IMG/VR virus record: IMGVR_UViG_3300009182_000039 | Span: 1-64,000 of that record | Strand: one strand, 5' to 3' | Source: a virus | DNA length: 64,000 bases | Shown: in pieces, positions 1-50,021 of the stretch | Layout: each line of letters opens with the position of its first letter | How positions within the stretch are numbered: the first letter of the stretch is position 1 | The notes under the pieces: model-generated | Told to the model about the DNA's origin: nothing | Seen by the model: only the letters and a program-made list of their open reading frames with translations | The model's database searches: none | Translations under genes and position numbers: made by a program

Positions 1-1
1 A

Positions 2-316
2 CGACGAATTAGTGTAGAGTCCGCAAGAGTATCGTGGTGGCATAATGTTAGGCCAACAGGCGGACTACGATTAACTTCTACTGGCTGGCTTGCTCTAGCT
101 GGAGATCTTGATTTAGAATTTTACGAATATAAAATAAAAGATCCTGTAGCATTTAATCAACATATGATATTGGCATTGGATCGAAAATTACAAATGCCTT
201 ATTATATTGTAGCCACAAAAGGCGTGCCAAAAGCTGTGGTATTTTTTGATAGTAAAGAAGCGGTGTTAGCCAATTTATATGGTGATTTAGAAAAGTTTCT
301 TGACAATTATAATTAA
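2..316 (+). CDS. Hypothetical phage protein, 5'-truncated by window edge
   Basis: Open frame from base 2 (RRISVESARVSWWHNVRPTGGLRLT...) to TAA 314-316; absent from ORF track (no start in window). Confidence 0.75.
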   Translation, partial: RRISVESARVSWWHNVRPTGGLRLTSTGWLALAGDLDLEFYEYKIKDPVAFNQHMILALDRKLQMPYYIVATKGVPKAVVFFDSKEAVLANLYGDLEKFLDNYN

Positions 317-328
317 AGGTGTTATATT
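300..328 (+). promoter_or_regulatory. Sigma70-type promoter for tRNA-CAT
   Basis: TTGACA-N17-TATATT, 9 nt before the tRNA. Confidence 0.65.
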
Positions 329-337
329 AACAATATA

Positions 338-412
338 GGGCCAATAGCTTAATGGTAAAGCAATCGACTCATAATCGATTGAGTCTAGGTTCAATTCCTA
401 GTTGGCCCACCA
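338..412 (+). tRNA. tRNA anticodon CAT, probably Ile2 (lysidine type) rather than Met
   Basis: Cloverleaf GGGCCAA/TTGGCCC-ACCA; anticodon arm ATCGA-CTCATAA-TCGAT resembles tRNA-Ile2 GACTCATAATCG. Confidence 0.9.
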
Positions 413-427
413 GAACTAAATAACTTT

Positions 428-595
428 ATGGAACAGAACAAAAAACCCGTTGATAAGTTTTTTTACTCTGAAAAAGAGTGGGATCGTTTAGGATGTGGTC
501 CGTTGCCCGACGAGCGTGATCGTAATAAGTTTCAAGAAGTACACGCAAAAGGTAATCCAAAGATTGACGGCAAGGCTGTAAAAGGATATAACTAA
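428..595 (+). CDS. Small hypothetical protein (55 aa, MEQNKKPVDKFFYSEKEWDRLGCGP...)
   Basis: ATG 428 to TAA 595; TAAATA 5 nt upstream. Confidence 0.6.
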   Translation: MEQNKKPVDKFFYSEKEWDRLGCGPLPDERDRNKFQEVHAKGNPKIDGKAVKGYN

Positions 596-686
596 AATGG
601 CTATGGTAGGTTTATTAGTTTGCGTAGCAATTTTATTATATGCTCTAGTAGTATTAAAAGATTATTATAAAGATAATCAGTAAAGA

Positions 687-1025
687 ATTGTTGTAATTCC
701 TCCGTAAGGAAGGCGCTGTGGACGGGAGTTCGATTCTCCCCGGATCCACCAAAGCATACTCCGAACCAAGTTATTGGTAGCAAGGGTGTAGCCCGAGTAT
801 GCTTTAGTGGGTCCGACCGGTTTCGACATGGTGAGATAATGAAAGAGGCAACACGGTAGGCGATGACCGTTAATCAAGCAAATCTCGTAAATGCAAAAGC
901 ATCTACTGGCGAAGTAACTGTTTCAGCTAAGAACATCAAGTTCCGCACTTTAGCAGCTAAAGGCCAATCATTAGCAGTTTAATCACTGCTTAGGGCAGGA
1001 AATGCCTCGTAACAGAAACCACCAG
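687..1025 (+). ncRNA. ssrA: Circularly permuted (two-piece) tmRNA
   Basis: Acceptor piece ends GGGAG-TTCGATT-CTCCC-CGGATCC-ACCA (CCA 749-751) upstream of coding piece starting GGGTCCG (809); 7-bp acceptor stem with G3.U70; TAAAT-GCA resume at 893, tag frame to TAA 982, helix over stop codon. Outer ends approximate. Confidence 0.92.
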
Positions 1026-1050
1026 AACCCGCTTCGGCGGGTTTCTTTTT
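1026..1050 (+). terminator. Intrinsic terminator after tmRNA
   Basis: AACCCGC-TTCG-GCGGGTT followed by T-tract. Confidence 0.9.
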
Positions 1051-1145
1051 GTCATAATCAACCAAAATCTAGTAATTTTTTGCTGTCTAAGACAAAAACG
1101 CAATAAATATTAGTTCAGTATTACAAACATAAAGGAAATATTAGA

Positions 1146-1598
1146 ATGAAAAAAGTACTATTAGCAGTAGCATTATTAGCATCAACAACTTTTGCGTTTG
1201 CAACTGATGTTGGCGTTTTCGGTGGCCGCAACATGGGCTCTAAGCAAGACGCTGTAGGTGTTTCCGTTGGTCAGTCATTTGGCAAATTTGGCGTTCAAGG
1301 AACATTTGATCGCAGTACAATTGGTCCTATTGATGTAAATCGTTACACTACATCAGTAAGCTACGATGTCGTTAAATTAGGTCCTGTACAAACTAATGTT
1401 CGTGCTGGCGCTGCATTTATTGATACTCAAAAGCCAGGTGTAGGCAATGGCGGTGCCGGATTTGTTGGCGCTGGTGTAGCTTATCAAGTAGTGAAAAATG
1501 TAAATTTGGTTGCTGATTATGCTTACCAAAAAGGTAATAACATTACTAAGGCCTACGATGGTAACATCGTAACCGCAGGTGTTAAGTACTCGTTCTAA
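1146..1598 (+). CDS. Outer-membrane 8-stranded beta-barrel protein (OmpA-TM/Ail/Lom-like)
   Basis: Signal peptide, alternating beta pattern, C-terminal GVKYSF BAM motif; SD AAGGAA. Confidence 0.85.
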   Translation: MKKVLLAVALLASTTFAFATDVGVFGGRNMGSKQDAVGVSVGQSFGKFGVQGTFDRSTIGPIDVNRYTTSVSYDVVKLGPVQTNVRAGAAFIDTQKPGVGNGGAGFVGAGVAYQVVKNVNLVADYAYQKGNNITKAYDGNIVTAGVKYSF

Positions 1599-1614
1599 AT
1601 TTTACGAGTTTAAT

Positions 1615-1639
1615 AAAAAGGACCCTAGGGTCCTTTTTT
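1615..1639. terminator. Bidirectional intrinsic terminator
   Basis: Perfect palindrome AAAAAGGACCCTAGGGTCCTTTTT. Confidence 0.85.
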
Positions 1640-1694
1640 ATTGACCATTTAGTATCGCTATAATGATATGATTTAGTTCTTAAATAGTTGTATC

Positions 1695-1949
1695 ATGCGA
1701 GCACTTTGGGACAAGTATCCCGAGCTTCCTTATAGGGCTGTAGCACCATGGCCTATCATAGAAACCAACGGGAATCTAGATTGGGTTGCCGCAGTTGATA
1801 CGATGAAATCCTGGCTTGAATCCGCAGTTGGTAGGCACTATGTCCGGTGGACTTGGACTATGTGGACTTTGGATCAAACTGATTTATGCGGTGTGAGTTT
1901 TGCCCGTGACACTGATAGTACGCTGTTTTTACTAAAATGGAACCATTAG
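1695..1949 (+). CDS. Small phage protein, C-terminal FxLKW family
   Basis: 84 aa ending FARDTDSTLFLLKWNH. Confidence 0.7.
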   Translation: MRALWDKYPELPYRAVAPWPIIETNGNLDWVAAVDTMKSWLESAVGRHYVRWTWTMWTLDQTDLCGVSFARDTDSTLFLLKWNH

Positions 1950-1961
1950 TACAAACAAAGG

Positions 1962-1990
1962 TTGACAAACAAACATAAATACCTTACAAT
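1962..1990 (+). promoter_or_regulatory. Sigma70 promoter of leader peptide/tRNA region
   Basis: TTGACA-N17-TACAAT. Confidence 0.8.
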
Positions 1991-2000
1991 ATACAATACT

Positions 2001-2111
2001 ATGAAAAACATTATTCATTCTTCATTATTACAGCCAACACAAGGCGGGCTAGCCTATTGGGCAGTGGATTGCGGCATGATTAATGTACTAGAAGCAAAGG
2101 GTCTTAGTTAA
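2001..2111 (+). CDS. Putative attenuator leader peptide (36 aa, MKNIIHSSLLQPTQGGLAYWAVDCGMINVLEAKGLS)
   Basis: ATG 10 nt after the -10 box; stop codon lies within 5' arm of an antiterminator stem. Confidence 0.65.
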   Translation: MKNIIHSSLLQPTQGGLAYWAVDCGMINVLEAKGLS

Positions 2112-2169
2112 TATTGTATTAATATATTTTTAACCAAGACCCTGGAACTAAACACTCCAGGGTTTTTTT
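2098..2169 (+). promoter_or_regulatory. Mutually exclusive antiterminator/terminator (attenuator)
   Basis: 2098-2111 pairs with 2130-2143 (13/14 bp); terminator ACCCTGGA(2139-2146)/TCCAGGGT(2156-2163)+T-tract shares 2139-2143. Confidence 0.75.
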
Positions 2170-2189
2170 ATTTTGAAAAGGAAAGAAAG

Positions 2190-2348
2190 ATGATAGATTA
2201 TACCAAATTGAATGATCGTATTATCGAGCAGGCTTATTCGAACATTTTGACGCCAGAAGAAAAACGCAGGCTGATCGAAGAAAAATTTAATCGTGCTGCT
2301 CAATATTATAAATCGGTACAAGCACCAATCTACCCAATTAAGGACTAG
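2190..2348 (+). CDS. Small hypothetical protein (52 aa, MIDYTKLNDRIIEQAY...)
   Basis: SD AAGGAAAG, ATG 2190, TAG 2348. Confidence 0.6.
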   Translation: MIDYTKLNDRIIEQAYSNILTPEEKRRLIEEKFNRAAQYYKSVQAPIYPIKD

Positions 2349-2374
2349 ACAAAGTAGTTGAATTGTAGTATAAT
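2346..2374 (+). promoter_or_regulatory. Sigma70-type promoter
   Basis: TAGACA-N17-TATAAT. Confidence 0.6.
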
Positions 2375-2380
2375 GTGTTA

Positions 2381-2542
2381 TGGGAAACGAGATCCTGGTC
2401 TGCACGTAAAACATGGACCGAATGGGCGGGCACTAAGATGAAACTCCTTGTGTGGAGCGAAAAATCAGTGTATAGTAAAGCGCATTGGACGATCCGAGTT
2501 ATCGGAAGCAAACATCATAAGTGGCTAGTGCGCTTTACTATA
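2381..2542 (+). ncRNA. Candidate structured RNA(s) preceding tRNA-Cys
   Basis: GC-enriched non-coding segment, then 18-bp stem 2471-2488/2525-2542 enclosing TCCGA-GTTA-TCGGA hairpin. Confidence 0.45.
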
Positions 2543-2551
2543 TATAATAAT

Positions 2552-2629
2552 GGGACGGTGGCGGAGTGGCCCAACGCAAGGGACTGCAAATCCCTAAAAC
2601 CGTGAGTTCAAATCTCACCCGTCCCTCCA
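2552..2629 (+). tRNA. tRNA-Cys(GCA)
   Basis: AGGGA-CTGCAAA-TCCCT anticodon arm; GGGACGG/CCGTCCC-TCCA. Confidence 0.92.
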
Positions 2630-2647
2630 TATTTAATAAATATATCT

Positions 2648-3253
2648 ATGCGTTATACTGATAATATCCCTTTACATTGTTTTCCCGTTGATACTAAAAT
2701 TGATATACCTAAGTTGTATGAAAGTGTAGTAATTTTATTACAAAGATTAGGATTAAGTCTTATCGTAGTCGATAGTATACTCAAAAAACAAAAAGCATTC
2801 GCAATAAATTTAACACATTTGCCGCACTTAACAGGCGATGCAAGGTGGAAGGCTCATACAGGCACACATGATTTGGTTAAAAAAGAAGGTGTAAACGAAG
2901 GTGACTTTGTTACAGTACTAGCCGAGTTAGAGGGATTATATTTAGCTCAAGTGTTTAATGATATACTTAGAATTCATGGCAAACCATTTCAAGGTAGAAC
3001 TCAACTGTCGTGGCGAGGCGCCGGATCATTATATCAATTCCATACTGATCCACATACAGCTAATAGATACCATATACCCATTGTAACCAACAACAAATGT
3101 TATTGGGTATTTAAAAATAAAGAAGAATTCATCAAAGTAACTATGCCAGCTGACGGAAGGGCGTGGTATGTAGACCCAACTAAATTAAAACATACTTTTA
3201 TTAACGATTCAAATGAAGCTAGATTGCATTTATTAATGACTAGCGAAATATAG
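2648..3253 (+). CDS. Fe(II)/2OG-type oxygenase (Asp/Asn beta-hydroxylase-like)
   Basis: HTD...YHIPI...KHT..N...RLHL motif pattern. Confidence 0.7.
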   Translation: MRYTDNIPLHCFPVDTKIDIPKLYESVVILLQRLGLSLIVVDSILKKQKAFAINLTHLPHLTGDARWKAHTGTHDLVKKEGVNEGDFVTVLAELEGLYLAQVFNDILRIHGKPFQGRTQLSWRGAGSLYQFHTDPHTANRYHIPIVTNNKCYWVFKNKEEFIKVTMPADGRAWYVDPTKLKHTFINDSNEARLHLLMTSEI

Positions 3254-3265
3254 TAATATATCTAT

Positions 3266-3335
3266 CGCGGGATAGAGATATAATATCTCGAGGGTCTCGC
3301 CTTATTTCTTGGTGTAATCAAAGATCCCGCAACCA
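3266..3335 (+). pseudogene. Degenerate initiator tRNA-fMet-like remnant
   Basis: CGCGGGA.../TCCCGCA-ACCA with C1.A72 mismatch; anticodon and T arms not formable. Confidence 0.6.
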
Positions 3336-3340
3336 AACAC

Positions 3341-3417
3341 GGTTTGGTAGTTCAATTGGTTAGAGCACCGCCCTGTCACGGCGGAAGTTGCGAGTTCGAG
3401 TCTCGTCCAGACCGCCA
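3341..3417 (+). tRNA. tRNA-Asp(GTC)
   Basis: CCGCC-CTGTCAC-GGCGG; ends GCCA. Confidence 0.95.
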
Positions 3418-3422
3418 AGAAT

Positions 3423-3577
3423 GTCGCCCGACCTAGGGGTTGAAACTAGGGGTTGCTGACTCGCCATAGCAGTCAGGGTTAGGTAGGTTAGACAAAAATC
3501 TCCACGCAGGTTGTAGCGGATACAACTAACAGTGATAACTCAAGCCCGGGGCTCTACGACAATGAGTAGCCGGGCAC
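3423..3577 (+). ncRNA. Candidate multi-hairpin ncRNA between tRNA-Asp and tRNA-Glu
   Basis: Stems CCTAG/CTAGG, CTGACT/AGTCAG, GGTTGTA/TACAACT, GCCCGG/CCGGGC; GC-rich, no credible ORF. Confidence 0.5.
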
Positions 3578-3580
3578 TTC

Positions 3581-3656
3581 GCTCCCATCGTCTAGAGGCC
3601 TAGGACACCGCCCTTTCACGGCGGGTACGCCGGTTCGAATCCGGCTGGGAGCGCCA
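3581..3656 (+). tRNA. tRNA-Glu(TTC)
   Basis: CCGCC-CTTTCAC-GGCGG; GCTCCCA/TGGGAGC-GCCA. Confidence 0.95.
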
Positions 3657-3674
3657 AACATTAAATAATAATAC

Positions 3675-3749
3675 GAGTCCCTGATGTCAACGGTAGCATG
3701 TCGGTCTCCAAAACCGATCGTCGGAGTTCGAATCTCTGGGGATTCGCCA
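3675..3749 (+). tRNA. tRNA-Trp(CCA)
   Basis: TCGGT-CTCCAAA-ACCGA; ends GCCA. Confidence 0.92.
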
Positions 3750-3769
3750 AATAAATTTGAAAGATATTA

Positions 3770-4243
3770 ATGAAATTTAACATACCTCAAATCAAAGAAT
3801 TTGTTGACCGACAGGGTCCTGATACTAGGATTTATATTGGTGTAGACTCTGAGCGAATTAAAAGAGATAAAGTTTGGTATGCTGATTATACTGCGGCCAT
3901 TGTAGTACACATCGATGGCAAGCACGGATGTAAGTTATTTGGCGAAGTAACTCGCGAACGAGATTATGATAGAGTAGACAAGCCTAATACTAGACTAATG
4001 ATGGAAGTGTTTAAGGTTAGTGAGCTATACTTAAAACTTGCTGAAGTCTTAGAAAATAGAGCAGTAGAAGTACACTTAGATATTAATCCAGACGAAAATC
4101 ACACAAGTTCTAATGTGGTGGCGCAGGCAATAGGATATATACGAGGCACTTGTAATGTTGAACCACTTGTTAAACCTCGCGCATTCGCAGCAACTTATGC
4201 GGCAGATAGGATGAAAGGGTTACGAGTAGCAAACGAATTTTAA
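3770..4243 (+). CDS. RNase H-like YkuK/DUF458 family protein
   Basis: IYIGVDS, RLMMEV, EVHLDIN, A.YAAD motifs. Confidence 0.8.
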   Translation: MKFNIPQIKEFVDRQGPDTRIYIGVDSERIKRDKVWYADYTAAIVVHIDGKHGCKLFGEVTRERDYDRVDKPNTRLMMEVFKVSELYLKLAEVLENRAVEVHLDINPDENHTSSNVVAQAIGYIRGTCNVEPLVKPRAFAATYAADRMKGLRVANEF

Positions 4244-4244
4244 T

Positions 4245-4329
4245 GGGAATGTGGAGAAACAGGTATACTCACAAGACTTAAAATCTTGCGCCGTAAGGCA
4301 TGGCGGTTCGATCCCGCCCATTCCTACCA
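4245..4329 (+). tRNA. tRNA-Leu(TAA)
   Basis: CAAGA-CTTAAAA-TCTTG, long variable arm, ACCA. Confidence 0.93.
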
Positions 4330-4346
4330 GGAGTCAAAGTTTTAAT

Positions 4347-4373
4347 GCGAGGTTAGTTTAATGGTATTGAGAG
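4347..4373 (+). pseudogene. 5' fragment of a tRNA-Gly-like gene
   Basis: GCGAGGTTAGTTTAATGGTA acceptor/D-arm start, then TTGAGAG as in the tRNA-Gly(GCC) T-stem. Confidence 0.45.
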
Positions 4374-4381
4374 CATAGCGA

Positions 4382-4453
4382 GCGGGTGTAACTCAGTGGT
4401 AGAGTGTCAGCCTTCCAAGCTGTTCGTCGCAGGTTCAATCCCTGTCACCCGCT
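4382..4453 (+). tRNA. tRNA-Gly(TCC), no encoded CCA
   Basis: TCAGC-CTTCCAA-GCTGT; GCGGGTG/CACCCGC-T. Confidence 0.9.
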
Positions 4454-5171
4454 CGGTATGTTTTTGATTCCAGATATGAATTTTTTCTAATAATTGTTCA
4501 ATAGTTAGGTCGCATTTGCTGTGTTTAATTTTATTTTTTGAATGTAACATTATTCGGCAATTAGCAGGATGAGAAATAATTTTTGGATCAATATTATTAG
4601 CAAATCCGTAACTAACAGATATAATATGATCTCGACTAACTCCTAAAACATTTTTAGGGTGTCCTTTTCTTTTTAATCCTGGGCAAGTATACCATCCATG
4701 TTGTTCTATTAGTGACAGGTCAAATTCTCCTGGATAGTGATATACATTAAATCTAAATCTAGCAGAAGCATAATATTGCTCTTTAATAGTTTTGATATAT
4801 GGTGAAGATTTACGAATAGTGCCGTCTGGATTTTTATTAGAATAATATCGATTAGTATGTTTGCATAATATAAATTTTATTTTAGAATACGGAAATTTTT
4901 CTGTAGCAGTGGGTCCTCTTTTTCGAGAAATACTATTTGTAATTTTAGACGCACAACTATTTGAGCAATATTTATTTTTTCTTTTATTAAACTTGAGGGG
5001 TGTTTGACAACATTTACATTTAACAGGATTGAGGCTATATTTGATTTTAGATTTTTCTAAATTGGTTTTATTTCTAAAAGTAGTTCCGCATGATAAGGAA
5101 CAGAATTTTCCATATGATCCTGGAGTTATATTAAATAGGTTAGAACAATGTTGACAAATAGCAGTTTTCAT
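4407..5171 (-). mobile_element. Free-standing HNH-type homing endonuclease with Cys-rich repeats
   Basis: CxxC...FCS.SC repeats, C-terminal SRDHIIS...HPANC...N..K HNH motif; antisense in tRNA array; likely start ATG 5171. Confidence 0.8.
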
Positions 5172-5197
5172 ACTATTATTTAGCATAGTTTAAGGAA

Positions 5198-5225
5198 AAG
5201 AGTTCGATTCTCTCACTCCGCTCCA
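5198..5225 (+). pseudogene. 3' fragment (T-arm + acceptor + CCA) of tRNA-Gly-like gene
   Basis: AGAG-TTCGATT-CTCT-CACTCCGC-TCCA. Confidence 0.6.
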
Positions 5226-5244
5226 TTATTTAAAGGTCACTATT

Positions 5245-5835
5245 ATGTTTGAAGATTTTAATTTTTTACCAGGAGACAAAATACTATTTGCTGGCAAATT
5301 GCCTGATGAAATTTTTTCGGAAATAGCTCAATTTGTTGAGCATTGTAGGAAAATTAAAGACCATCCATTGGGTCACTTGTATAATCATGTAAATAAAGGT
5401 AAAAATTCATATCAGATATCAGTTCCAAGACATCTATTAGAGCAATCATTTTTATTTCCATATATGATTAAGTTAGGTGAATATTATTTAAAAGAATATA
5501 ATATTAATAATACTTATGTAAAACCGGTAAGATTAAGATCAAACCATAATCATTACGACGGATACGATTGTTGGATTAATTTTACGACTAAAGGCGATAG
5601 TAATCCGCAACATTATCATAGTGGAGCATTGTCAGGCGTAATTTATTATTCTAATATTGATAAATGTCCAACTATTTTTGAAAACGGTGTAAGCTATGCT
5701 GGTAAAGAACAAGAAATTATAATTTTCCCTGCTAAGTTAGAGCATTCTGTAGCTACACATATTAGTGATAATGAACGTATTACATTAAGTTTTAATTTAG
5801 AATTATTAGAGAGTAAAAATGCGGGTATGGTGTAA
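5245..5835 (+). CDS. Putative Fe(II)/2OG oxygenase
   Basis: HYH..LSGVIY...FPAKLEHSV...RITLSFN; last codons overlap tRNA-Gly(GCC). Confidence 0.8.
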   Translation: MFEDFNFLPGDKILFAGKLPDEIFSEIAQFVEHCRKIKDHPLGHLYNHVNKGKNSYQISVPRHLLEQSFLFPYMIKLGEYYLKEYNINNTYVKPVRLRSNHNHYDGYDCWINFTTKGDSNPQHYHSGALSGVIYYSNIDKCPTIFENGVSYAGKEQEIIIFPAKLEHSVATHISDNERITLSFNLELLESKNAGMV

Positions 5836-5894
5836 TGGTAACCCGAGACCTTGCCAAGGTTTAGTTGAGAGTTCGATTCTCTCTACCCGCTCCA
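5821..5894 (+). tRNA. tRNA-Gly(GCC)
   Basis: AGACC-TTGCCAA-GGTTT; GCGGGTA/TACCCGC-TCCA. Confidence 0.93.
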
Positions 5895-5900
5895 ATCAAT

Positions 5901-5976
5901 GGTAACTGTAGTTCAATGGTAGAATCCAGGATTGTGATTCCTGTCGTTGTGGGTTCGAGTCCCATCAGTTACCCCA
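5901..5976 (+). tRNA. tRNA-His(GTG)
   Basis: CAGGA-TTGTGAT-TCCTG; G-1:C73 pair, CCA. Confidence 0.93.
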
Positions 5977-6052
5977 AACTATGTAATTTTGGTAAGATTG
6001 TTGTCAACTTAATGTAAACTTCAAGCGTTAATATAGTATGCTAGGAGGCATT

Positions 6053-6208
6053 ATGTTAACAACTACAAAACCCAATTACAAAGATCCTAAAGTAGGATAC
6101 TCTACGCAAGATTCATATTTGCGAATGAAATGTCCTAACTGTGATAAACGTCGTAGCGGGCCTTGTAGTCATCCCAGCATACTTAACCTTAAAGGAAATT
6201 CAAAATGA
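6053..6208 (+). CDS. Small CxxC-containing protein (51 aa)
   Basis: SD AGGAGG; ...KCPNCDKRRSGPCSH...; stop overlaps next ATG. Confidence 0.55.
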   Translation: MLTTTKPNYKDPKVGYSTQDSYLRMKCPNCDKRRSGPCSHPSILNLKGNSK

Positions 6209-6378
6209 AACAATTAATCGCAATCGTAGCAAGTGTATTCGCATTATCAGCAGTTGCTGCAGACGCACCTAAAGCGCCAGCCGCACCAGCTAAGGTAGAG
6301 AAAAAGGACGCACAGCCTTCCAAAAGCGCCGCGCCTGCTGTCAAAGAAACAAAAACAGCGACTCCAGCTTCTAAGTAA
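6205..6378 (+). CDS. Small secreted Ala/Pro/Lys-rich protein (57 aa)
   Basis: MKQLIAIVASVFALSAVA signal peptide then ADAPKAPAAPAKVEKK...; SD AAGGAA. Confidence 0.7.
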   Translation: MKQLIAIVASVFALSAVAADAPKAPAAPAKVEKKDAQPSKSAAPAVKETKTATPASK

Positions 6379-6627
6379 TTTTAAATTTGAAGATTCAGAC
6401 GATGACTACTACGAGGATACTCCGGATATCCATGTAGGACGTTGTCGTCCTGAACTTATTAAAGTTGATGTTATTGATAACGACATTGACTTAACTGATG
6501 ATATTAAAATTAGATTAGCTGTAGCCAGATTAAAGGCGCTGAAGAAATATGAAAAGGTTTGGGGATAATACTCTAAACCTTTTTCATTTGTAGTACAATT
6601 TTTTATTAATTTAGAAAGGAGCACGAT

Positions 6628-7233
6628 ATGCCAGCAGTATTTTTAGTTAGTGATACGCACTTTGGTCACGCAGGTGTATGTCGCTTCACTCGCAATGATG
6701 GCGTGACAAAACTTCGCCCGTGGGACAATGCCGAGGAAATGGATGAAGCCATGATCAAGGCATGGAACGAGCGAGTACGGCCAAACGATAAAGTTTACCA
6801 CTTAGGCGATGTTGTTATTAATCGTAAGGCCTTGCCTATATTAAATAGGCTCAACGGTGATAAAGTTCTGATCCGTGGTAACCATGATATTTTTAAGGAC
6901 GAAGACTATACTCCTTACTTCCGTAGTCTTCGTGGATACCATGTTATGAACGGAATGATTCTTAGTCATATTCCTCTTCATACGGAAAGCCTTGGACGCT
7001 TTGGTGTTAACATTCACGGACACCTTCACGCTAATCGCGTAAAGAAAATTCGTAGCGTTAATGTTAAGACCGGTGAACTTCTTTACAGTAATGAGAACGA
7101 TGTCCGCTACCATTGCGTATGCGTAGAACAGACCCCGGACTTCGCTCCTATCCTTTTTGAAGATGTTATCAAACGCATTGAAGCCGAAGGTGGTGTAGTT
7201 GGATTTCAAAATGGAAACGGTCCAACGATGTAG
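6628..7233 (+). CDS. Calcineurin-like metallophosphoesterase
   Basis: SDTHFGH, LGD, GNHD, SH, HGHLH motifs. Confidence 0.92.
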   Translation: MPAVFLVSDTHFGHAGVCRFTRNDGVTKLRPWDNAEEMDEAMIKAWNERVRPNDKVYHLGDVVINRKALPILNRLNGDKVLIRGNHDIFKDEDYTPYFRSLRGYHVMNGMILSHIPLHTESLGRFGVNIHGHLHANRVKKIRSVNVKTGELLYSNENDVRYHCVCVEQTPDFAPILFEDVIKRIEAEGGVVGFQNGNGPTM

Positions 7234-7248
7234 TGGGCTAAATATTAT

Positions 7249-7890
7249 ATGCGTAAAATTTTTAGCCCACTGCCCAATATTAAAGTAGATATTAATCGAT
7301 TATATTCGGAGATGCTTTATTACTGGCATCCAAACCTATCGTCTAGAGCTACTAGTGCAAGTTTTACCACAGCAAAAAAATATGTAGATGATCTTAATTG
7401 TGATTTTCTTAAATATACCGGTGCCGCTTATTTGTTGTCAAAAGATTCAATGGTGATGAAGTATCCTGATGGGGAGATCGATCAGGAATTAATATATTGG
7501 CCTAAATTACTGGAAAATAGTTATATGAAAGAATTAGGTGATCGCTTTGCTAATTTATTACAAGTTAAAAATTATCGAGCTAGAGCAAGTTATATGAATA
7601 CCTATGGCCTAATAGAAGATTTCCCCGCAGGAGATCTTCATACAGATCAGCACACGCCTTATAGATTACACATAGCACTAAATACTAGTCTTGGTGTAAA
7701 ATGGAGATTTGAAAACGAAGCCGGGCTAACTCAGTATATACATCAACCAGCCGATGGAGTACCAGTATTGATAGAAACTGGAAAAACTAAACACCAAGTC
7801 ATAATCCCTAAAGATTCTATAAGAATCCATCTGTATTATCAATATTACGAAGATATTGATCAAACTTTGTTAGATAATATACTACAATGA
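7249..7890 (+). CDS. Fe(II)/2OG-type oxygenase-like protein
   Basis: HTD..TPYRLHIAL...KHQV...RIH; paralogue of 2648-3253. Confidence 0.6.
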   Translation: MRKIFSPLPNIKVDINRLYSEMLYYWHPNLSSRATSASFTTAKKYVDDLNCDFLKYTGAAYLLSKDSMVMKYPDGEIDQELIYWPKLLENSYMKELGDRFANLLQVKNYRARASYMNTYGLIEDFPAGDLHTDQHTPYRLHIALNTSLGVKWRFENEAGLTQYIHQPADGVPVLIETGKTKHQVIIPKDSIRIHLYYQYYEDIDQTLLDNILQ

Positions 7891-8507
7891 ATATAATCTG
7901 TGGTCCAGAAAATGATAAGCGTACTATCTCTATTACTCTCCCTAAACAAAAATCTCGAATAGGTATATTTGTTAGTGGCGGATTAGATAGTGCTATACTA
8001 TACTATTTGTTATTAATAGAAAATAACTTGCGTGGAAACTTTCACGAAATTATACCTATCTCTGTTATGCGTAAAGAAGGATCAAAATACTGTAGTAAAA
8101 TTGTAGCAGGCCATATCCACGGACATTTTAAATTACCCCAATTAGATCCATTAATTATGGGAGACAATACGCTACCCGAAGAAGAACAAGTAAAATCTGG
8201 AATTGAACAAGCTCTTGCTAACCAATTTGATTTAGTCTATGCTGGAGTAATTGAACAACTACCGCAACATATGGTTGGGTGGCAACCTATACCTTCACAA
8301 GAAACTAAAAAATTTAAAACTCCTTTTAAAACTCTTAATAAAAGTCATATCATAGATTTAATAAGCAAACTTAATCAAGAAACATTATTTTATATTACAC
8401 ATAGTTGCTCTGTACAAGAAATAGGCAGATGTAACTACTGTAACGGATGTAACGAACGAGCTTGGGGATTCAAGCAGTTAGGATTGTCTGATCCAGGAAC
8501 TATATAA
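7887..8507 (+). CDS. QueC-like PP-loop ATPase
   Basis: SGGLDS and C-terminal THSC...CNYCNGC.ER zinc motif. Confidence 0.7.
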   Translation: MNIICGPENDKRTISITLPKQKSRIGIFVSGGLDSAILYYLLLIENNLRGNFHEIIPISVMRKEGSKYCSKIVAGHIHGHFKLPQLDPLIMGDNTLPEEEQVKSGIEQALANQFDLVYAGVIEQLPQHMVGWQPIPSQETKKFKTPFKTLNKSHIIDLISKLNQETLFYITHSCSVQEIGRCNYCNGCNERAWGFKQLGLSDPGTI

Positions 8508-9090
8508 ATTTTGTTATTATATTAACAAGATCTCGATAATTAGCAGGCCTAGGAGTTGGTTTGGTCTTTGAATTAAATTGAATAATATCTTCATAACATA
8601 ATTCAAGATCTGTAGTAATACTCTCTACTATCTTATTAGACTCTAATATATGCTTTATACAAATATTAATCTTCTCTTCATCTAACATAATAAGATCATT
8701 TGACTGAAACTCTGTTATAGATTTTTCAAACTGTGATAAGTTATTCCTGTTTTCTCCCCAATACACCCAAACATTTCTTATTAGTGCAATGTAGTAGCTA
8801 GCTATTTGTTCAACTATATCTTTGCGACTGAGTTTAATTTTAAAATTTTGATCAGCAAAAATATACTCTGTAAGAGTTGCTGGATAGGTAGGTATGTGAT
8901 CTACTATTATTTTTAAAACATGTTTATTTTTAGATTGTTCAATAAATTGTTCTAGTTGAAAATCTGGCGCTGGCTCGCTATAGTACAACACACCTGGATT
9001 AGAATTTGCAATATGATAACCAATTGCGTTACTTCCTGTTCTGGGACTAGCAAATATAACTACTGGATATTTTGTAATATTAATATTCAT
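8500..9090 (-). CDS. Sulfotransferase-like P-loop protein
   Basis: SPRTGS 5'-PSB-like motif, L.RKD..EQIAS, YED. Confidence 0.6.
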   Translation of the reverse strand: MNINITKYPVVIFASPRTGSNAIGYHIANSNPGVLYYSEPAPDFQLEQFIEQSKNKHVLKIIVDHIPTYPATLTEYIFADQNFKIKLSRKDIVEQIASYYIALIRNVWVYWGENRNNLSQFEKSITEFQSNDLIMLDEEKINICIKHILESNKIVESITTDLELCYEDIIQFNSKTKPTPRPANYRDLVNIITKFI

Positions 9091-9135
9091 TTAACCAAAA
9101 ATCGTATTTGTTTAATAATTCTTTATATAACTTAT

Positions 9136-9669
9136 TCATTTGTGTATAGATAAATCTGGTGTAAAGCGTACACTAAGAATCATTCTAGTGTGATTAGAAA
9201 AATTTGTTACGCTATGTGGAGTATCAATGTCTACAACCATCGGGCAATCAACTTTAACAATTTTTGCTAGATTAGGACCGTGATGCCAAATTATATCTAA
9301 ATATGCTAGCCCACGATTATCTTCTGTTTTTAAAGTATAGGCGCCGTCATACCAAAACATTTCAGCATCGCTTGATGTAATAGGAATATTTACAGCCCAG
9401 TTTGGGTGACCTTCCCTATTAGGTTTTATTCCATCAACATGAATTATTCCTCTTAACTTAGGCGGCTGAATAAAAATTATTGCGTTAGCAACTTTATGTT
9501 CTAATTTAGTAAATGCGTTGACATCGGATAAAATCTGTTCTGCTATCCAATTTCTTTCATCGGCAGATAATACTATGCTCCGTTTATTATGAGCAATTAA
9601 TTCTTTATCTTTGAACTTATCTTGTATAATTTTCCAGTTAGATATAGTAATTGGCTGTGTATATTTCAT
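9136..9669 (-). CDS. Fe(II)/2OG-type oxygenase-like protein
   Basis: IHVDG...AVNIPI...PHSVTN...RMILSVR. Confidence 0.65.
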   Translation of the reverse strand: MKYTQPITISNWKIIQDKFKDKELIAHNKRSIVLSADERNWIAEQILSDVNAFTKLEHKVANAIIFIQPPKLRGIIHVDGIKPNREGHPNWAVNIPITSSDAEMFWYDGAYTLKTEDNRGLAYLDIIWHHGPNLAKIVKVDCPMVVDIDTPHSVTNFSNHTRMILSVRFTPDLSIHK

Positions 9670-9814
9670 AATATATAATCTTTAAAAATTTCAAGTGATT
9701 CTTGCATAGTAACTCGTTCGCGGGTTGATTTATGTTTAAAAACTCTATTACCGATAAGTTAGTGTTAAAAAGAGGCAACCCTAAGTTAAGATCTACACAA
9801 TATTCATTTATCAT
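9666..9814 (-). pseudogene. Internally deleted gene remnant
   Basis: N-terminal frame MINEYCVDLNLGLPLF... joined out of frame to ...VFKHKSTRERVTMQESLEIFKDYIL*, whose TGA overlaps the next ATG. Confidence 0.55.
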
Positions 9815-10388
9815 GATAAGTTATATTAGGTATCGGGGGAAGCGAGAAATCAGTTCGGTTACTCCACGGTAATAATCTAATACTTATACCTATAGCCACT
9901 TCGTCACTAGTATTGGTAAGATTATGCCACTGAGCCACATTAGATATAAACGGTGTTGTACAAAAGATATCTTGCAATGGTCTAGTATCTTTTAATTTTA
10001 TACTAGGTACTGCGTTAAATTTTTTCTTTTCACTGTAGTTAAATATAGCATCTGGGTTAACAACTTTGTGCCAAAACCATTTTAATTTATCGCAATTTTT
10101 CAAAGGTAACATAAGAGTTTGATTTATAAGTAAATCTGCTGGCATATCTTTACGATTATCCGAATGAATAACAATTGATGAATTTGGCAGGAAATATACT
10201 AATAATATGTTATGCCCATCATAGGTTGATTTATCTACTCGTAGTAATTCAAAAATTTGTTGCTGGATATGCTCGTCTAATCTTCCCACAAATCCTATTT
10301 TTGGATTAGGAATATCTGGAGGATCAATTAATTTTAAAATTTTATCTATCGGAGGATCAATCCAAGTTACTGGTTTATGTAGTTCCAT
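9804..10388 (-). CDS. Fe(II)/2OG-type oxygenase-like protein
   Basis: IHSD...WHNLTN...ISIR; start reassigned to ATG 10388 after TAAATA. Confidence 0.6.
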   Translation of the reverse strand: MELHKPVTWIDPPIDKILKLIDPPDIPNPKIGFVGRLDEHIQQQIFELLRVDKSTYDGHNILLVYFLPNSSIVIHSDNRKDMPADLLINQTLMLPLKNCDKLKWFWHKVVNPDAIFNYSEKKKFNAVPSIKLKDTRPLQDIFCTTPFISNVAQWHNLTNTSDEVAIGISIRLLPWSNRTDFSLPPIPNITYHDK

Positions 10389-10432
10389 AGAAATATTTAT
10401 TATAAATATTTTCATGGTAAAAGATAAAAAAC

Positions 10433-10461
10433 TTGACTAATATTAATTTTTATAGTATAAT
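10433..10461 (+). promoter_or_regulatory. Sigma70 promoter
   Basis: TTGACT-N17-TATAAT. Confidence 0.8.
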
Positions 10462-10485
10462 ATATGTAACTTGAAAGGAATCATT

Positions 10486-10656
10486 ATGGCAAAAACACCA
10501 AAACAACAAACTGCTACCGATTTACAACGCACCTTAGCTGGTCAATGGAGTAAAACAGAAAAACGAGCAGAAGCAAGTCGCCAGATCATGGCCAGCAAGA
10601 AAAAAACACACGAAATTAATAAAGCCTTCCGTAACGCACAAATTTTAGCAAGATAA
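10486..10656 (+). CDS. Small basic protein
   Basis: SD AAGGAA, ATG 10486. Confidence 0.65.
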   Translation: MAKTPKQQTATDLQRTLAGQWSKTEKRAEASRQIMASKKKTHEINKAFRNAQILAR

Positions 10657-10675
10657 CCAACCATAAAGGTATAAT

Positions 10676-10975
10676 ATGAAACTAGTAGCTCAATCGCCAA
10701 CTGGCGATAAAATTGTTCCACGCTTAGTCCAATCTAAATATGATCCAACTAGTACAGTAGGCCGCACTTCGGAAGCGGCAGCCAAAGTAGTTGGACGCTA
10801 CGAACTAATTGCGATTGGTGCGGCTCGTATCCGTGAACTTCGGTCAGGTCATGCTAAACGAGTTCCATCAACATACGGCGACCTAGTCACAGTATTATTG
10901 GAAATTGAAGCTGGCGAGATTGATGCTGGCGAATATTTGTTAAAATCTACAGCGCCACCAAAGCGTTACAAGTAA
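10676..10975 (+). CDS. rpoZ: RNA polymerase omega subunit homologue
   Basis: RYELIAIGAARIRELRSG...VTVLLEIEAGEI aligns with omega consensus RFDLVLVAARRARQM...VIALREIEEG. Confidence 0.75.
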   Translation: MKLVAQSPTGDKIVPRLVQSKYDPTSTVGRTSEAAAKVVGRYELIAIGAARIRELRSGHAKRVPSTYGDLVTVLLEIEAGEIDAGEYLLKSTAPPKRYK

Positions 10976-10986
10976 AAAAGTATTAC

Positions 10987-11079
10987 GGAGAGCTGGCCGA
11001 GCGGTCGAAGGCACCCGCCTACTAAGCGGGCATGGATCTAAACAGTCCATCTGGGGTTCGAATCCCTAGCTCTCCGCCA
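10987..11079 (+). tRNA. tRNA-Ser(ACT), rare A34 anticodon
   Basis: CCCGC-CT-ACT-AA-GCGGG, long variable arm, G73, CCA. Confidence 0.88.
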
Positions 11080-11136
11080 AGAATTTTTGCCCGGTATATG
11101 ACCATTAATAAGTAAAATTACAACAAAGGAATACAC

Positions 11137-11376
11137 ATGGCAACCAAAGGTGGAAATCAAAAATCTCATAAATCAGATCCAATGCGTACCAAGAACGGTA
11201 AAGAGCGATTGGGTCCGTTAAATATTAGCCAATTAGAAAAATTATTATCTAATGCCCGTAAAAAAAATGTCGCTAAAATTCATCGTAGAATTAATGAATT
11301 AAAAAGTCGACCAGGATTCGTCAAAGCAGTTGAAGTATCTGCAGCAGAAGCCGCAGTGGTGGAGTCGTTGCTGTAA
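11137..11376 (+). CDS. Small basic hypothetical protein
   Basis: SD AAGGAA; 79 aa. Confidence 0.7.
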   Translation: MATKGGNQKSHKSDPMRTKNGKERLGPLNISQLEKLLSNARKKNVAKIHRRINELKSRPGFVKAVEVSAAEAAVVESLL

Positions 11377-11390
11377 AGTAGTAAATCTGT

Positions 11391-11463
11391 GCCCTTATAG
11401 CTCAGTTGGTAGAGCACCGGTTTTGTAAACCGGTTGTCCCGTGTTCGAATCATGGTGGGGGCA
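11391..11463 (+). tRNA. tRNA-Thr(TGT)
   Basis: CCGGT-TTTGTAA-ACCGG; GCCCTTA/TGGGGGC-A; CCA displaced by 2 nt. Confidence 0.9.
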
Positions 11464-11475
11464 TACCAGTATTAT

Positions 11476-11551
11476 TCCGGTCAAGCAAACACGGTGTAGG
11501 CGGTGGACTATTAATCCATGAAGCCTGGTTCGATTCCAGGGACCGGAGCCA
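11476..11551 (+). tRNA. tRNA-Asn(ATT), rare A34 anticodon
   Basis: GTGGA-CT-ATT-AA-TCCAT; TCCGGTC/GACCGGA-GCCA Asn-type acceptor. Confidence 0.85.
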
Positions 11552-11558
11552 AAAATAT

Positions 11559-11876
11559 ATGACAACTAAGAAAAATATAGACCCGGGTAGACCAATAAGT
11601 CGCCCAATGGCCCCAATAACAACTGATACCAATTGGGGTAAGCAATTAACTAAAGCCGAATGGAAAAAGTTAATGAAAAAGTTAGACGCTAAGAAAAAGG
11701 AAAGAGAAATGTCAAAATTATCAGACACACTAGCCAAAGCATTGGCAAAGAAACAAGGCAAGACTCACGTAGACGGCAGTGATGCTGGCGCTACGGTAGA
11801 AAAAAAATCTAAAGTTAAACCTTCAGCTGGCCCGGCTAAAAAACCGCCTACTCGTAGTGCTGGACGAGGTCGTTAA
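11559..11876 (+). CDS. Lys-rich basic protein (possible internal start MSKLSD at 11709)
   Basis: Track ORF 11406 trimmed to first ATG after tRNAs. Confidence 0.6.
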   Translation: MTTKKNIDPGRPISRPMAPITTDTNWGKQLTKAEWKKLMKKLDAKKKEREMSKLSDTLAKALAKKQGKTHVDGSDAGATVEKKSKVKPSAGPAKKPPTRSAGRGR

Positions 11877-12473
11877 TTATAATCCAAATAATGTTTTTTT
11901 AGCGTCATTGAAATAAAAAGATGCAGGATTGGTTATTCGTAGTGTTAGTACCATTCGTCGATTAGTGGATTGTCTATTATCAAAATCATGCCAGATATCC
12001 GTATTAAATAAAATACATTCGTTAGGTTTAGCCGTCATCGATTTAACTGGAGTATGTTTAGTTTTATCAAATCCGACAGCTTCTCTAGACGCATTTTCCC
12101 AATTAAGCCCTGTAATAGGGTAGTTAGACAAATCATTATCACTGTACCAATTAGTTACGCATTTATCATCTAAAATTTCTACGGTATAATTTAAACTTAT
12201 CCTATTATCACAACCATCTTTGTGTGCGCGGTAATATCTGCCGCCTTTAGTAACAAACATAGATGCCCTATTCTGTTGTAGAGCTAGACTCTGCGACAAT
12301 GGTGTAATAGCTAATATCTCTTGACGAATTTCTGGAGGGAATTTATAATGAGTAAATGTTTTTTCCAAATCTACCCCGTTCATGCCTTGTTTACAAATAT
12401 TGATAATCTTATCAAGACCATCGTGCGTGAATCTAATATAGTAAGGGCTACAATCTTCAATTACGGTGTACAT
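11877..12473 (-). CDS. Fe(II)/2OG-type oxygenase-like protein
   Basis: AHKDG...ISLN...WHDFDN...RMVLTLR. Confidence 0.65.
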   Translation of the reverse strand: MYTVIEDCSPYYIRFTHDGLDKIINICKQGMNGVDLEKTFTHYKFPPEIRQEILAITPLSQSLALQQNRASMFVTKGGRYYRAHKDGCDNRISLNYTVEILDDKCVTNWYSDNDLSNYPITGLNWENASREAVGFDKTKHTPVKSMTAKPNECILFNTDIWHDFDNRQSTNRRMVLTLRITNPASFYFNDAKKTLFGL

Positions 12474-49439: not shown

Positions 49440-49741
49440 TTAATATTTGGTTCCGTTTTTTTAACTACTATACTGACATCGGTGGGATGACACGGAATAC
49501 CAGTTTTGGCAGGGTACAATCTTTTTACTATCGATGTATCGAGCACAACTATGTTATTATCAACTACTCTTATGTGTGTAGGAGGATTAACATATACTTC
49601 TCTAGTAATGTCTATATAATTACCTGGCAAATCCTCTTGGCTATAAAAAAGTGGCTGGCCTTGATCATCATAATACAGCCTATATAGAATAGGTTTTGGT
49701 TCTGCGGGTGTTAATGCCGCCCAAAATTCTTGTTCATTCAT
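49424..49741 (-). CDS. Hypothetical phage protein
   Basis: Coupled ORF, YRLYYD..G motif. Confidence 0.7.
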   Translation of the reverse strand: MNEQEFWAALTPAEPKPILYRLYYDDQGQPLFYSQEDLPGNYIDITREVYVNPPTHIRVVDNNIVVLDTSIVKRLYPAKTGIPCHPTDVSIVVKKTEPNIKWSLR

Positions 49742-50021
49742 CGTGTAAGCCGTGATGTGGTCGGTCGATATCTTGGAATAAGCGTTTTTCCTGTGCTGTT
49801 AGTTTATCTTTTCCTTTGGCCGTTTCGTTATGCCGAGGATTAGAGCACATAGGACAATGCGGGATGCCGCAATCCATAGCATGATGTTTAGCCAAGCGAT
49901 GCGGTTCCTCGATTGGTTTAGTAAGCCCATGAGACTTAGCAATTCTTAATTGTTTTTTAATTGCGGTCCAGGCTTTGTGTAAACGCTTACTATGTTTAAT
50001 CTTATCTTCATCTTTACTCAT
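49734..50021 (-). CDS. Small basic Cys/His (Zn-binding-like) protein
   Basis: CGIPHCPMCSNPRH. Confidence 0.7.
   Translation of the reverse strand: MSKDEDKIKHSKRLHKAWTAIKKQLRIAKSHGLTKPIEEPHRLAKHHAMDCGIPHCPMCSNPRHNETAKGKDKLTAQEKRLFQDIDRPHHGLHDE

Follow-up and report, generated by a model that had tools for sequence, protein, structure and literature searches.

Positions 1,962 to 2,169 of the window (the whole 64,000-nt stretch of DNA analysed here, from IMG/VR virus record IMGVR_UViG_3300009182_000039) carry an element, placed ahead of a phage tRNA array, that is probably a ribosome-mediated (leader-peptide) transcription attenuator sensing shortage of any charged tRNA or slow elongation. From comparative sequence analysis, the element appears with high confidence to be a real and conserved attenuator, and both general sensing of tRNA supply and a link to tRNA expression are well motivated. 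A promoter is followed by a short leader open reading frame (ORF) whose end pairs with downstream RNA in an antiterminator, and this helix shares nucleotides with an intrinsic terminator. The mechanism class itself is that of classical ribosome-mediated attenuation. What is new is the pan-amino-acid leader in place of a codon run, the lack of an anti-antiterminator, and the target, a phage module ending in tRNA genes. To our knowledge, the characterised leader-peptide attenuators all respond either to a single amino acid, by way of a codon run, or to a single drug, and we know of essentially nothing on the regulation of phage tRNA genes.

Anatomy of the element and its predicted fold switch

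An earlier note on this DNA, made from the letters alone, had proposed a sigma70 promoter, a near-leaderless 36-codon ORF, and a 13/14-bp stem that sequesters the 5' arm of a strong intrinsic terminator, and all of these were found (Table 1). Of the 14 possible pairs between 2098-2111 and 2130-2143, 13 are formed, with A2106.C2135 as the sole mismatch. The terminator lies between the leader ORF and the regulated gene, pairs G2138/C2140-A2146 with T2156-G2162/T2164, carries seven T residues at 2163-2169 and has a dG of -13.9 kcal/mol; a consensus terminator scan missed it because the scanner permits only loops of 3-8 nt. Antiterminator and terminator share 2140-2143 and thus exclude each other, as they do in 47 of 47 relatives. 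In the minimum-free-energy (MFE) fold of 1997-2175 the antiterminator forms and the terminator is reduced to 3 bp (z = -2.45; equally good folds in 3 of 200 shuffles).

Transcription is predicted to start at about 1997-1998, and since the leader ATG, which has no Shine-Dalgarno (SD) sequence, is at 2001, the 5' untranslated region would measure only about 3-4 nt. The leader ORF, predicted to be translated, stands directly 3' of the sigma70 promoter, as the short ORF in the 5' leader of ribosome-mediated attenuators does, and sits inside a TTG-extended ORF (1962..2111) of the ORF list. No upstream ORF sequence pairing with 2098-2111, that is, no anti-antiterminator, appeared in the MFE or ensemble folds. 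The trp/his-attenuator geometry claimed in the earlier note thus stands for ORF, antiterminator and terminator but lacks this component; with the antiterminator 5' arm free of any upstream competitor, read-through is the prediction for a leader that is not translated.

The switch was analysed by partition-function folding with a ribosome-sized mask extending from -12 to +14 of the A-site, an extension of a masking check that the earlier note had suggested; all results of such folding are in silico. With the A-site at codons 1-28 of the window leader the antiterminator has a probability of 0.53-0.86, and at codons 30-37 the terminator has a probability of 1.00. Masking of the last 8 codons or of the stop flips the fold from antiterminator to terminator, as anticipated.

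These folds suggest the following sequence of events. RNA would be transcribed from the 1962-1990 promoter and its near-leaderless ORF translated at once. A ribosome keeping pace, standing within 2088-2111, on the stop or the ~8 codons before it, while the polymerase makes 2130-2169, would mask the antiterminator 5' arm, so that CCC 2140-2142 would pair downstream, the terminator would form and transcription would end at about 2165-2170. If the ribosome were absent or held in about the first 28 codons, 2098-2111 would pair with 2130-2143, thus removing the G-C base of the terminator, and the polymerase would read into a 52-aa gene, a structured RNA and the tRNA array. We infer from this arrangement that the leader is translated and that termination responds to the position of the ribosome.

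Table 1. Features of the element and of the unit behind it (window positions)
Feature	Position	Strand	Details
Sigma70-type promoter	1962..1990	+	-35 TTGACA 1962-1967, 17-nt spacer, -10 TACAAT 1985-1990; 11/12 matches
Near-leaderless leader ORF	2001..2111	+	36 codons, stop TAA 2109-2111; 18 amino-acid types; predicted to be translated
Mid-ORF hairpin H1	2033..2062	+	outer stem formed by the invariant Trp codon and an upstream CCA; inner stem covaries between clades
Invariant Trp codon (codon 20)	2058..2060	+	at the homologous place in 91/91 distinct leaders
Antiterminator 5' arm	2098..2111	+	last four sense codons and stop
Antiterminator 3' arm	2130..2143	+	2140-2143 also the base of the terminator 5' arm
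Intrinsic terminator	2138..2174	+	stem 2138-2146/2156-2164, 9-nt loop, U-tract from 2163
SD and 52-aa 'IDYTKLN'-family gene	2178..2348	+	SD AAGGAA 2178-2183; gene 2190-2348; first gene of the putative regulated unit
Second sigma70-like promoter site	2346..2374	+	TAGACA-17-TATAAT
Conserved structured RNA, no known family	2381..2551	+	motifs conserved; 12/15 predicted pairs with compensatory changes
tRNA array	2552..5976	+	Cys, Asp, Glu, Trp, Leu, Gly, Gly, His, interspersed with ORFs

Conservation of the proposed switch and of the unit behind it

Searches that started from an 84-aa ORF upstream and from the 52-aa ORF downstream both brought up related viral contigs. A profile built from the small protein then gave 63 viral loci (designated by L numbers below) with 47 distinct upstream sequences on contigs of up to 356 kb, and an independent scan of metagenome contigs gave 75 analysable loci, that is, loci with enough upstream sequence. 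Composition was counted in 91 distinct leaders, the fold switch was computed for 46 members of the family and hairpin H1 was compared in 45.

The element stands directly upstream of the 'IDYTKLN' gene in the 47 distinct viral loci, and its whole architecture recurs in 73 of the 75 metagenome loci. Promoter, small ORF, ORF-end stem and C-run-sharing terminator are present even where the small protein is only ~50% identical. The terminator and its T-run occur in all 47 relatives, with a dG from -10 to -19 (median -13.6), and the median antiterminator dG is -20.6. When nascent RNA ending at the C-run is folded (MFE), the C-run pairs in 47 of 47 cases with a G-run that lies within the final codons of an ORF 32-53 codons long. 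Every relative shares the terminator C-run with the antiterminator, by 2-4 nt in 46 of them and by 1 nt in L070. The stop codon lies 8-29 nt into the antiterminator hairpin, and its distance to the C-run is nearly constant (25-34 nt). Two architectures occur, one of the window type, with a continuous stem of ~14 bp that includes the stop, and another with a longer, branched hairpin that has the stop near its apex. In free RNA the antiterminator is favoured in 33 of 46 relatives, and with a ribosome at the stop the terminator is favoured in 36 of 46.

The earlier note had called for a search of relatives for a leader ORF with a covarying antiterminator; the leader ORF is the one described above, and both stems covary. 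Arm-swap energies and a covariance-model-based alignment were used for this analysis because a plain MAFFT alignment (A2) misaligned the 5' arms. Cognate antiterminator arms pair with -15.6 kcal/mol, against -9.1 when swapped, and none of 5000 permutations did as well. Nine of 13 antiterminator pairs change on both sides, and the covariation score of 0.291 compares with 0.156 in shuffles (0/500) and with at most 0.10 in slid-partner controls; the alignment figure of 74% paired is an underestimate, since some long-stem rows are mis-registered. For the terminator, 97% of cells are paired, five of eight pairs show compensatory changes, and the score is 0.39 versus 0.234 (0/500). Three columns of alignment A6 (89-91) are common to both helices, making the two folds mutually exclusive family-wide. 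The 5' arm motif is kept in differing reading frames by clade, as AAG GGT in the window and as AGG GTC in the L004 clade, which points to a constraint on the RNA and not on the peptide.

The frame of the leader and the position of its stop are kept in 91 distinct relatives, with in-frame indels and lengths of 32-56 codons; the maximum is 53 codons when an upstream in-frame extension in clade A is discounted. Leader pN/pS values are 0.35-0.74 with pS of 0.09-0.20, whereas the adjacent small-protein gene of the same genomes has 0.12-0.18 and 0.23-0.42, respectively. Variable sites of the leader are evenly spread across the three codon positions, and its peptide has no match in Pfam or PHROGs. 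The ORF thus appears to evolve as a leader and not as a protein gene, with weak constraint on the peptide and strong synonymous constraint, so that frame and RNA would be what matters. The promoter adjoins the ATG in ~20 of 47 relatives, and the others have an SD-like leader. At loci of the L019-L054 type, a long-leader clade, the leader ATG is not promoter-adjacent, and an A-rich SD-like stretch and a small conserved palindrome (..GCTAGC..) occur ~45 nt upstream.

The gene directly controlled is, judging from its position, the 52-aa gene, which starts 20 nt past the T-run (~20-25 nt in relatives) with its SD 6 nt before the ATG. In the window list of promoter-like sites, none lies wholly upstream of this ATG in the 20-nt gap behind the terminator. 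The small gene is conserved at 52-60 aa, and the 'IDYTKLN' family comprises 681 protein clusters of 54-60 aa, all without annotation. The 52-aa protein is predicted to form a two-helix hairpin (pLDDT 85); nothing similar was found in Pfam, PHROGs, the ESM Atlas or a Foldseek search of the PDB, and the cluster look-up gave no names. Between small gene and first tRNA, relatives carry a structured RNA of ~170-300 nt (for example L021:1687-1881), laid out as a hairpin with an AACGAG loop, a hairpin with a GCAC..TAAACAT loop and the motif ACGGGCGG, for which Rfam holds no family. The tRNA array begins 190-500 nt past the small gene in 37 of 39 relatives scanned.

As a caveat, the earlier note had pointed to a second promoter that might bypass the attenuator and leave only the 52-aa ORF under its control, and a strong promoter-like site is indeed present at 2346-2374, making bypass possible in the clade of the window. 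A comparably strong match (11/12) at this place is otherwise found only in the L038 clade, and L078 has a strong sigma70-like site overlapping the conserved 5' end of the structured RNA. The other 39 of 45 scored junctions between small gene and array have at most 8/12 matches, or no site (L072); lacking a strong sigma70-like match at the junction, most relatives appear to transcribe the RNA and the tRNAs through the attenuator.

Amino-acid content of the leaders and the proposed signal

Counting the window leader gives what the earlier note had reported, no codon run and 18 of 20 amino-acid types, including Cys, Asp, Glu, Trp, Leu, Gly and His; only Phe and Arg are missing. Across the family this property is much stronger. 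All 20 amino acids are present in 49 of the 91 distinct leaders (35-53 aa), Trp and His in 100% and Cys in 98%. Among random windows of phage proteins, all 20 occur in 1% at 48 aa and in 0.05% at 38 aa, and none of the neighbouring 52-60-aa proteins has more than 18 types. When leaders were grouped into 16 clusters of <45% identity, diversity exceeded that of shuffles of their own nucleotides in 16/16, and all 20 types occurred in 9/16 versus 0.55 expected from base-composition shuffles (0/500,000 simulations), statistics that overstate independence because the clusters share ancestry.

Among the leaders of 43-53 aa, 45 of 47 have all 20 types and 43 of 47 have exactly one Cys, at no fewer than 12 different positions relative to Trp, and the single His occurs at 8 positions. 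Residues have thus been lost and regained elsewhere while one of each was kept, a positional turnover for which shared ancestry alone does not account. On average, 19.1 of the 20 types fall within the ~36 codons where a stall leaves the antiterminator free, and the type usually outside is Glu, with its codon at the boundary. As most relatives' peptides hold all 20 amino acids, the leader looks like a general tRNA-supply sensor, and since family leaders hold (nearly) every amino acid, shortage of any charged tRNA or slow elongation should raise read-through. More read-through upon tRNA shortage would constitute a homeostatic or counter-defence loop for the phage tRNA supply. The general sensor proposed in the earlier note is hence supported at the level of the family, by all-20 leaders and positional turnover.

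Several points weigh against this reading, in addition to the common descent of the clusters. In the window alone, 18 of 20 types within 36 residues is not exceptional (p ~0.09 from random windows or draws). The eight downstream tRNAs read 31% of the codons in the window leader versus 28% in phage genes (p = 0.39), so that, of the note's claim that the leader samples the residues of the downstream tRNAs, their presence stands but no specific match to the array does. The two folds of the window are nearly isoenergetic, 0.55 for the antiterminator versus 0.45 for the terminator in free RNA, and the regulatory range may therefore be modest here. The terminator wins at equilibrium without a ribosome in 13 of 46 relatives, and in long-stem relatives a mask at the stop alone leaves the outer G-run uncovered. 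The 2346-2374 site could, by its sequence, largely free the tRNA expression of this phage from control by the attenuator, and the sigma70 scan of the relatives cannot see phage-specific promoters. Finally, extra tRNA cannot relieve amino-acid starvation, which restricts the adaptive logic to loss or limitation of tRNA. Given this second site, the degree to which the array of this phage depends on the attenuator is, like the nature of the sensed signal, inferred.

Part of these data would also agree with a sensor of coupling or initiation only, which would report that ribosomes load and keep up with the polymerase, in response to ribosome availability, initiation-factor balance or polymerase speed, and in which peptide diversity would have no sensing role. 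The predicted read-through of an untranslated leader that has no anti-antiterminator, the ATG placed right after the -10 to give a leaderless mRNA in ~20 of 47 relatives, and the weak peptide constraint are all as such a sensor would have them. It is rather unlikely, since chance falls far short of accounting for the pan-amino-acid leaders and the turnover of their single-copy residues, both of which call for an explanation by selection, and half of the family has an SD-led rather than a leaderless start. An attenuator specific for Trp is likewise unlikely. Here the single UGG would be the regulatory codon, with low charged tRNA-Trp leading to a stall and read-through, and the rest of the leader would be filler. 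Trp is the only invariant leader residue besides Met1 (91/91), the UGG lies 25-79 nt before the antiterminator, so that a stall there leaves the antiterminator free, and tRNA-Trp is often found in the downstream arrays. However, one Trp codon (two or three in a minority) contrasts with the regulatory-codon runs of characterised attenuators, the regulated genes have no link to Trp metabolism, and Cys, His and others at shifting positions, as well as the all-20 content of 45/47 long leaders, would be left unexplained. Moreover, the UGG is paired with a conserved CCA in H1, and such an RNA-level constraint can explain its invariance.

The UGG pairs with an upstream CC(A) in ~38 of 45 leaders, and H1, which is conserved and does not overlap the antiterminator, may act as an RNA polymerase pause or synchronising hairpin. 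With the Trp codon locked into H1, a Trp-specific component and RNA constraint are inseparable here, and the invariant central codon means that the general sensor may include a Trp-specific component.

The invariant Trp could also belong to a sensor based on nascent-peptide arrest, as in TnaC or the Erm leaders, in which Trp and its neighbours would contact the ribosome tunnel and stall on a small molecule. TnaC has a W-to-P spacing of 12, and the same spacing is found in W-L-A-I-N-S-L-S-x-D-R-x-P of one phage clade. The spacing is absent from the window clade and the other clades, the UGG of the clade that has it can alternatively pair with the downstream CCA Pro codon, a ribosome halted at that Pro would cover the base of the antiterminator and bring about termination, and the peptide sequence is weakly constrained, all of which makes arrest highly improbable. 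A TnaC-like motif as a family-wide feature was rejected, the spacing of 12 being confined to one clade; the TnaC pattern W-x3-D-x7-P is not conserved in the family, and the window peptide has no Pro after its Trp. Almost as hard to sustain, and very unlikely, is an independent gene for a small peptide (or small RNA), driven by its own promoter and followed by a terminator that is constitutive but leaky, the upstream stem being a stabilising or processing hairpin. Phage genomes often contain units of promoter, small ORF and terminator, the leader peptides form a recognisable family, and the near-equal energies of the two window folds would fit. Against this, the antiterminator shares the terminator C-run in all 47 relatives and covaries with the overlap kept, the 5' arm motif persists in differing frames between clades, leader pN/pS exceeds that of the neighbouring gene 3- to 4-fold while pS is depressed, and the small gene of the window would be left with no listed promoter-like site wholly upstream of its ATG.

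Host defences that cleave or modify tRNAs include anticodon nucleases, PARIS, retron effectors and Schlafen-type nucleases. A more specific and tentative form of the general-sensor reading, possible but doubtful at present, is that the 'pangrammatic' leader serves as a universal tRNA-integrity probe for such defences or for codon-specific slowdown, to which the small helical protein, the structured RNA and the phage tRNAs would be the response. Phage tRNAs have been described to counter tRNA-targeting immunity (PMC11555353 and PMC11464382, in excerpt). An inducible, self-correcting tRNA supply would, if true, add a new layer to the arms race between phages and this immunity. Likewise, a leader selected for one codon per amino acid would, if true, represent a new principle of sensing, with the supply of aminoacyl-tRNAs as a whole being read out. 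With ~210 nt the element would also be a compact part for synthetic biology that reports translation stress.

Known attenuators and the genomic setting

The general model for the mechanism class is that of classical ribosome-mediated attenuation (PMC1183508, in excerpt). Like the trpL, hisL, thrL, leuL, pheL and ilvL leaders, the phage element has a short leader ORF, an intrinsic terminator and a mutually exclusive antiterminator between which ribosome position would decide, and like the leaders of amino-acid operons it has an intra-ORF hairpin by which polymerase and ribosome could be kept in step. Unlike the trpL/hisL type, it has no run of regulatory codons but about one codon per amino acid, and it has no competing 1:2 hairpin, so that no 'superattenuation' is expected without translation. 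It differs further from amino-acid operons in a presumed output of a small unannotated protein, a structured RNA and tRNA genes rather than biosynthetic enzymes, and in the leaderless start found in about half of the family. Rfam leader families were searched for with cmscan (E up to 1) in window positions 1-12000, and nothing was found between 1962 and 2550.

Antibiotic-inducible leader-peptide attenuators such as those of vmlR, mef/msrD and ermK (PMC9226507 and PMC4335068, in excerpt) share the logic in which free translation leads to termination and a stalled ribosome to antitermination and a translation-restoring factor. They respond to a specific peptide or drug stall and control bacterial resistance proteins, whereas the presumed trigger of the phage element is the supply of any aminoacyl-tRNA and its output includes tRNA genes. 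T-box riboswitches are functional analogues in that tRNA charging is reported through a choice between terminator and antiterminator. They bind one uncharged tRNA, are untranslated and control aminoacyl-tRNA synthetase or amino-acid genes, unlike the phage element with its conserved ORF, and no T-box (stem I specifier loop, antiterminator bulge; Rfam model) matched in the window scan. In pyrBI and pyrE, too, the outcome is set by the distance between ribosome and polymerase on a leader ORF ending beside the terminator; there a close ribosome blocks the terminator and expression is on, whereas a ribosome at the end of the phage ORF would remove the antiterminator and turn expression off. TnaC of the tna operon resembles the phage leader as a short leader with a single critical Trp and, for one phage clade, in its W-to-P spacing; it stalls at the stop codon on free Trp and blocks Rho, unlike the phage element, where termination is intrinsic and the spacing is clade-specific and explicable by RNA pairing. 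The earlier note knew of no described phage example, in line with a full-text literature search for leader-peptide attenuators linked to phage tRNA genes, which gave nothing relevant.

The source is an uncultured giant phage from a lake with a GC content of ~35%. CheckV rates the 88.9-kb record, of which the window covers the first 64 kb, as 17% complete, a pointer to a genome of several hundred kb. Public sequencing runs with the region are nearly all freshwater or lake metagenomes. Distant-mode DNA and protein searches of GenBank phages gave no relative, and thus no cultured phage carrying the element was identified. A covariance model (R1) found only the single copy in the window and in the whole 88.9-kb record. 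Among RNA libraries, part of the region was found in one only, a fish-gut metatranscriptome kept as contigs. One of its contigs matches 2356-2542 exactly, and another matches the terminator of a relative and extends 29 nt past the T-run; as a contig neither reveals where an RNA ends nor rules out DNA, these are not counted as evidence of read-through.

Directly upstream of the attenuator promoter, at 1695-1949, lies an 84-aa ORF that is 76-90% identical in 12 viral contigs and belongs to no Pfam or PHROG family. The window holds 13 tRNA genes and one two-piece (permuted) tmRNA of betaproteobacterial type at 640-1073 (112.6 bits with the betaproteobacterial model and 109 bits with the permuted-tmRNA model), with a 29-residue tag according to ARAGORN; its match to the betaproteobacterial model is a hint of a betaproteobacterial host. 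Inside the tRNA array are two ORFs similar to 2OG-Fe(II)/Asp-Arg hydroxylases (2648-3253 and 5245-5835; Pfam PF05118, PF13759), and an RNase H-like ORF (PF04308) occupies 3770-4243. tRNAs with A34 anticodons (Ser-ACT, Asn-ATT, Ile-AAT, Phe-AAA and Leu-AAG) recur across related phages, at 10987-11079, 11476-11551 and 49678-49751 of the window and at L060:2157-2249, L071:1811-1903, L068:2547-2623 and L060:2625-2701. ARAGORN also predicts a tRNA with a four-base anticodon (ttga) at L028:2593-2661, either frameshift-suppressor-like or a prediction artefact. On the minus strand of the window, a single ORF of 2901 codons extends over 54989-63694.

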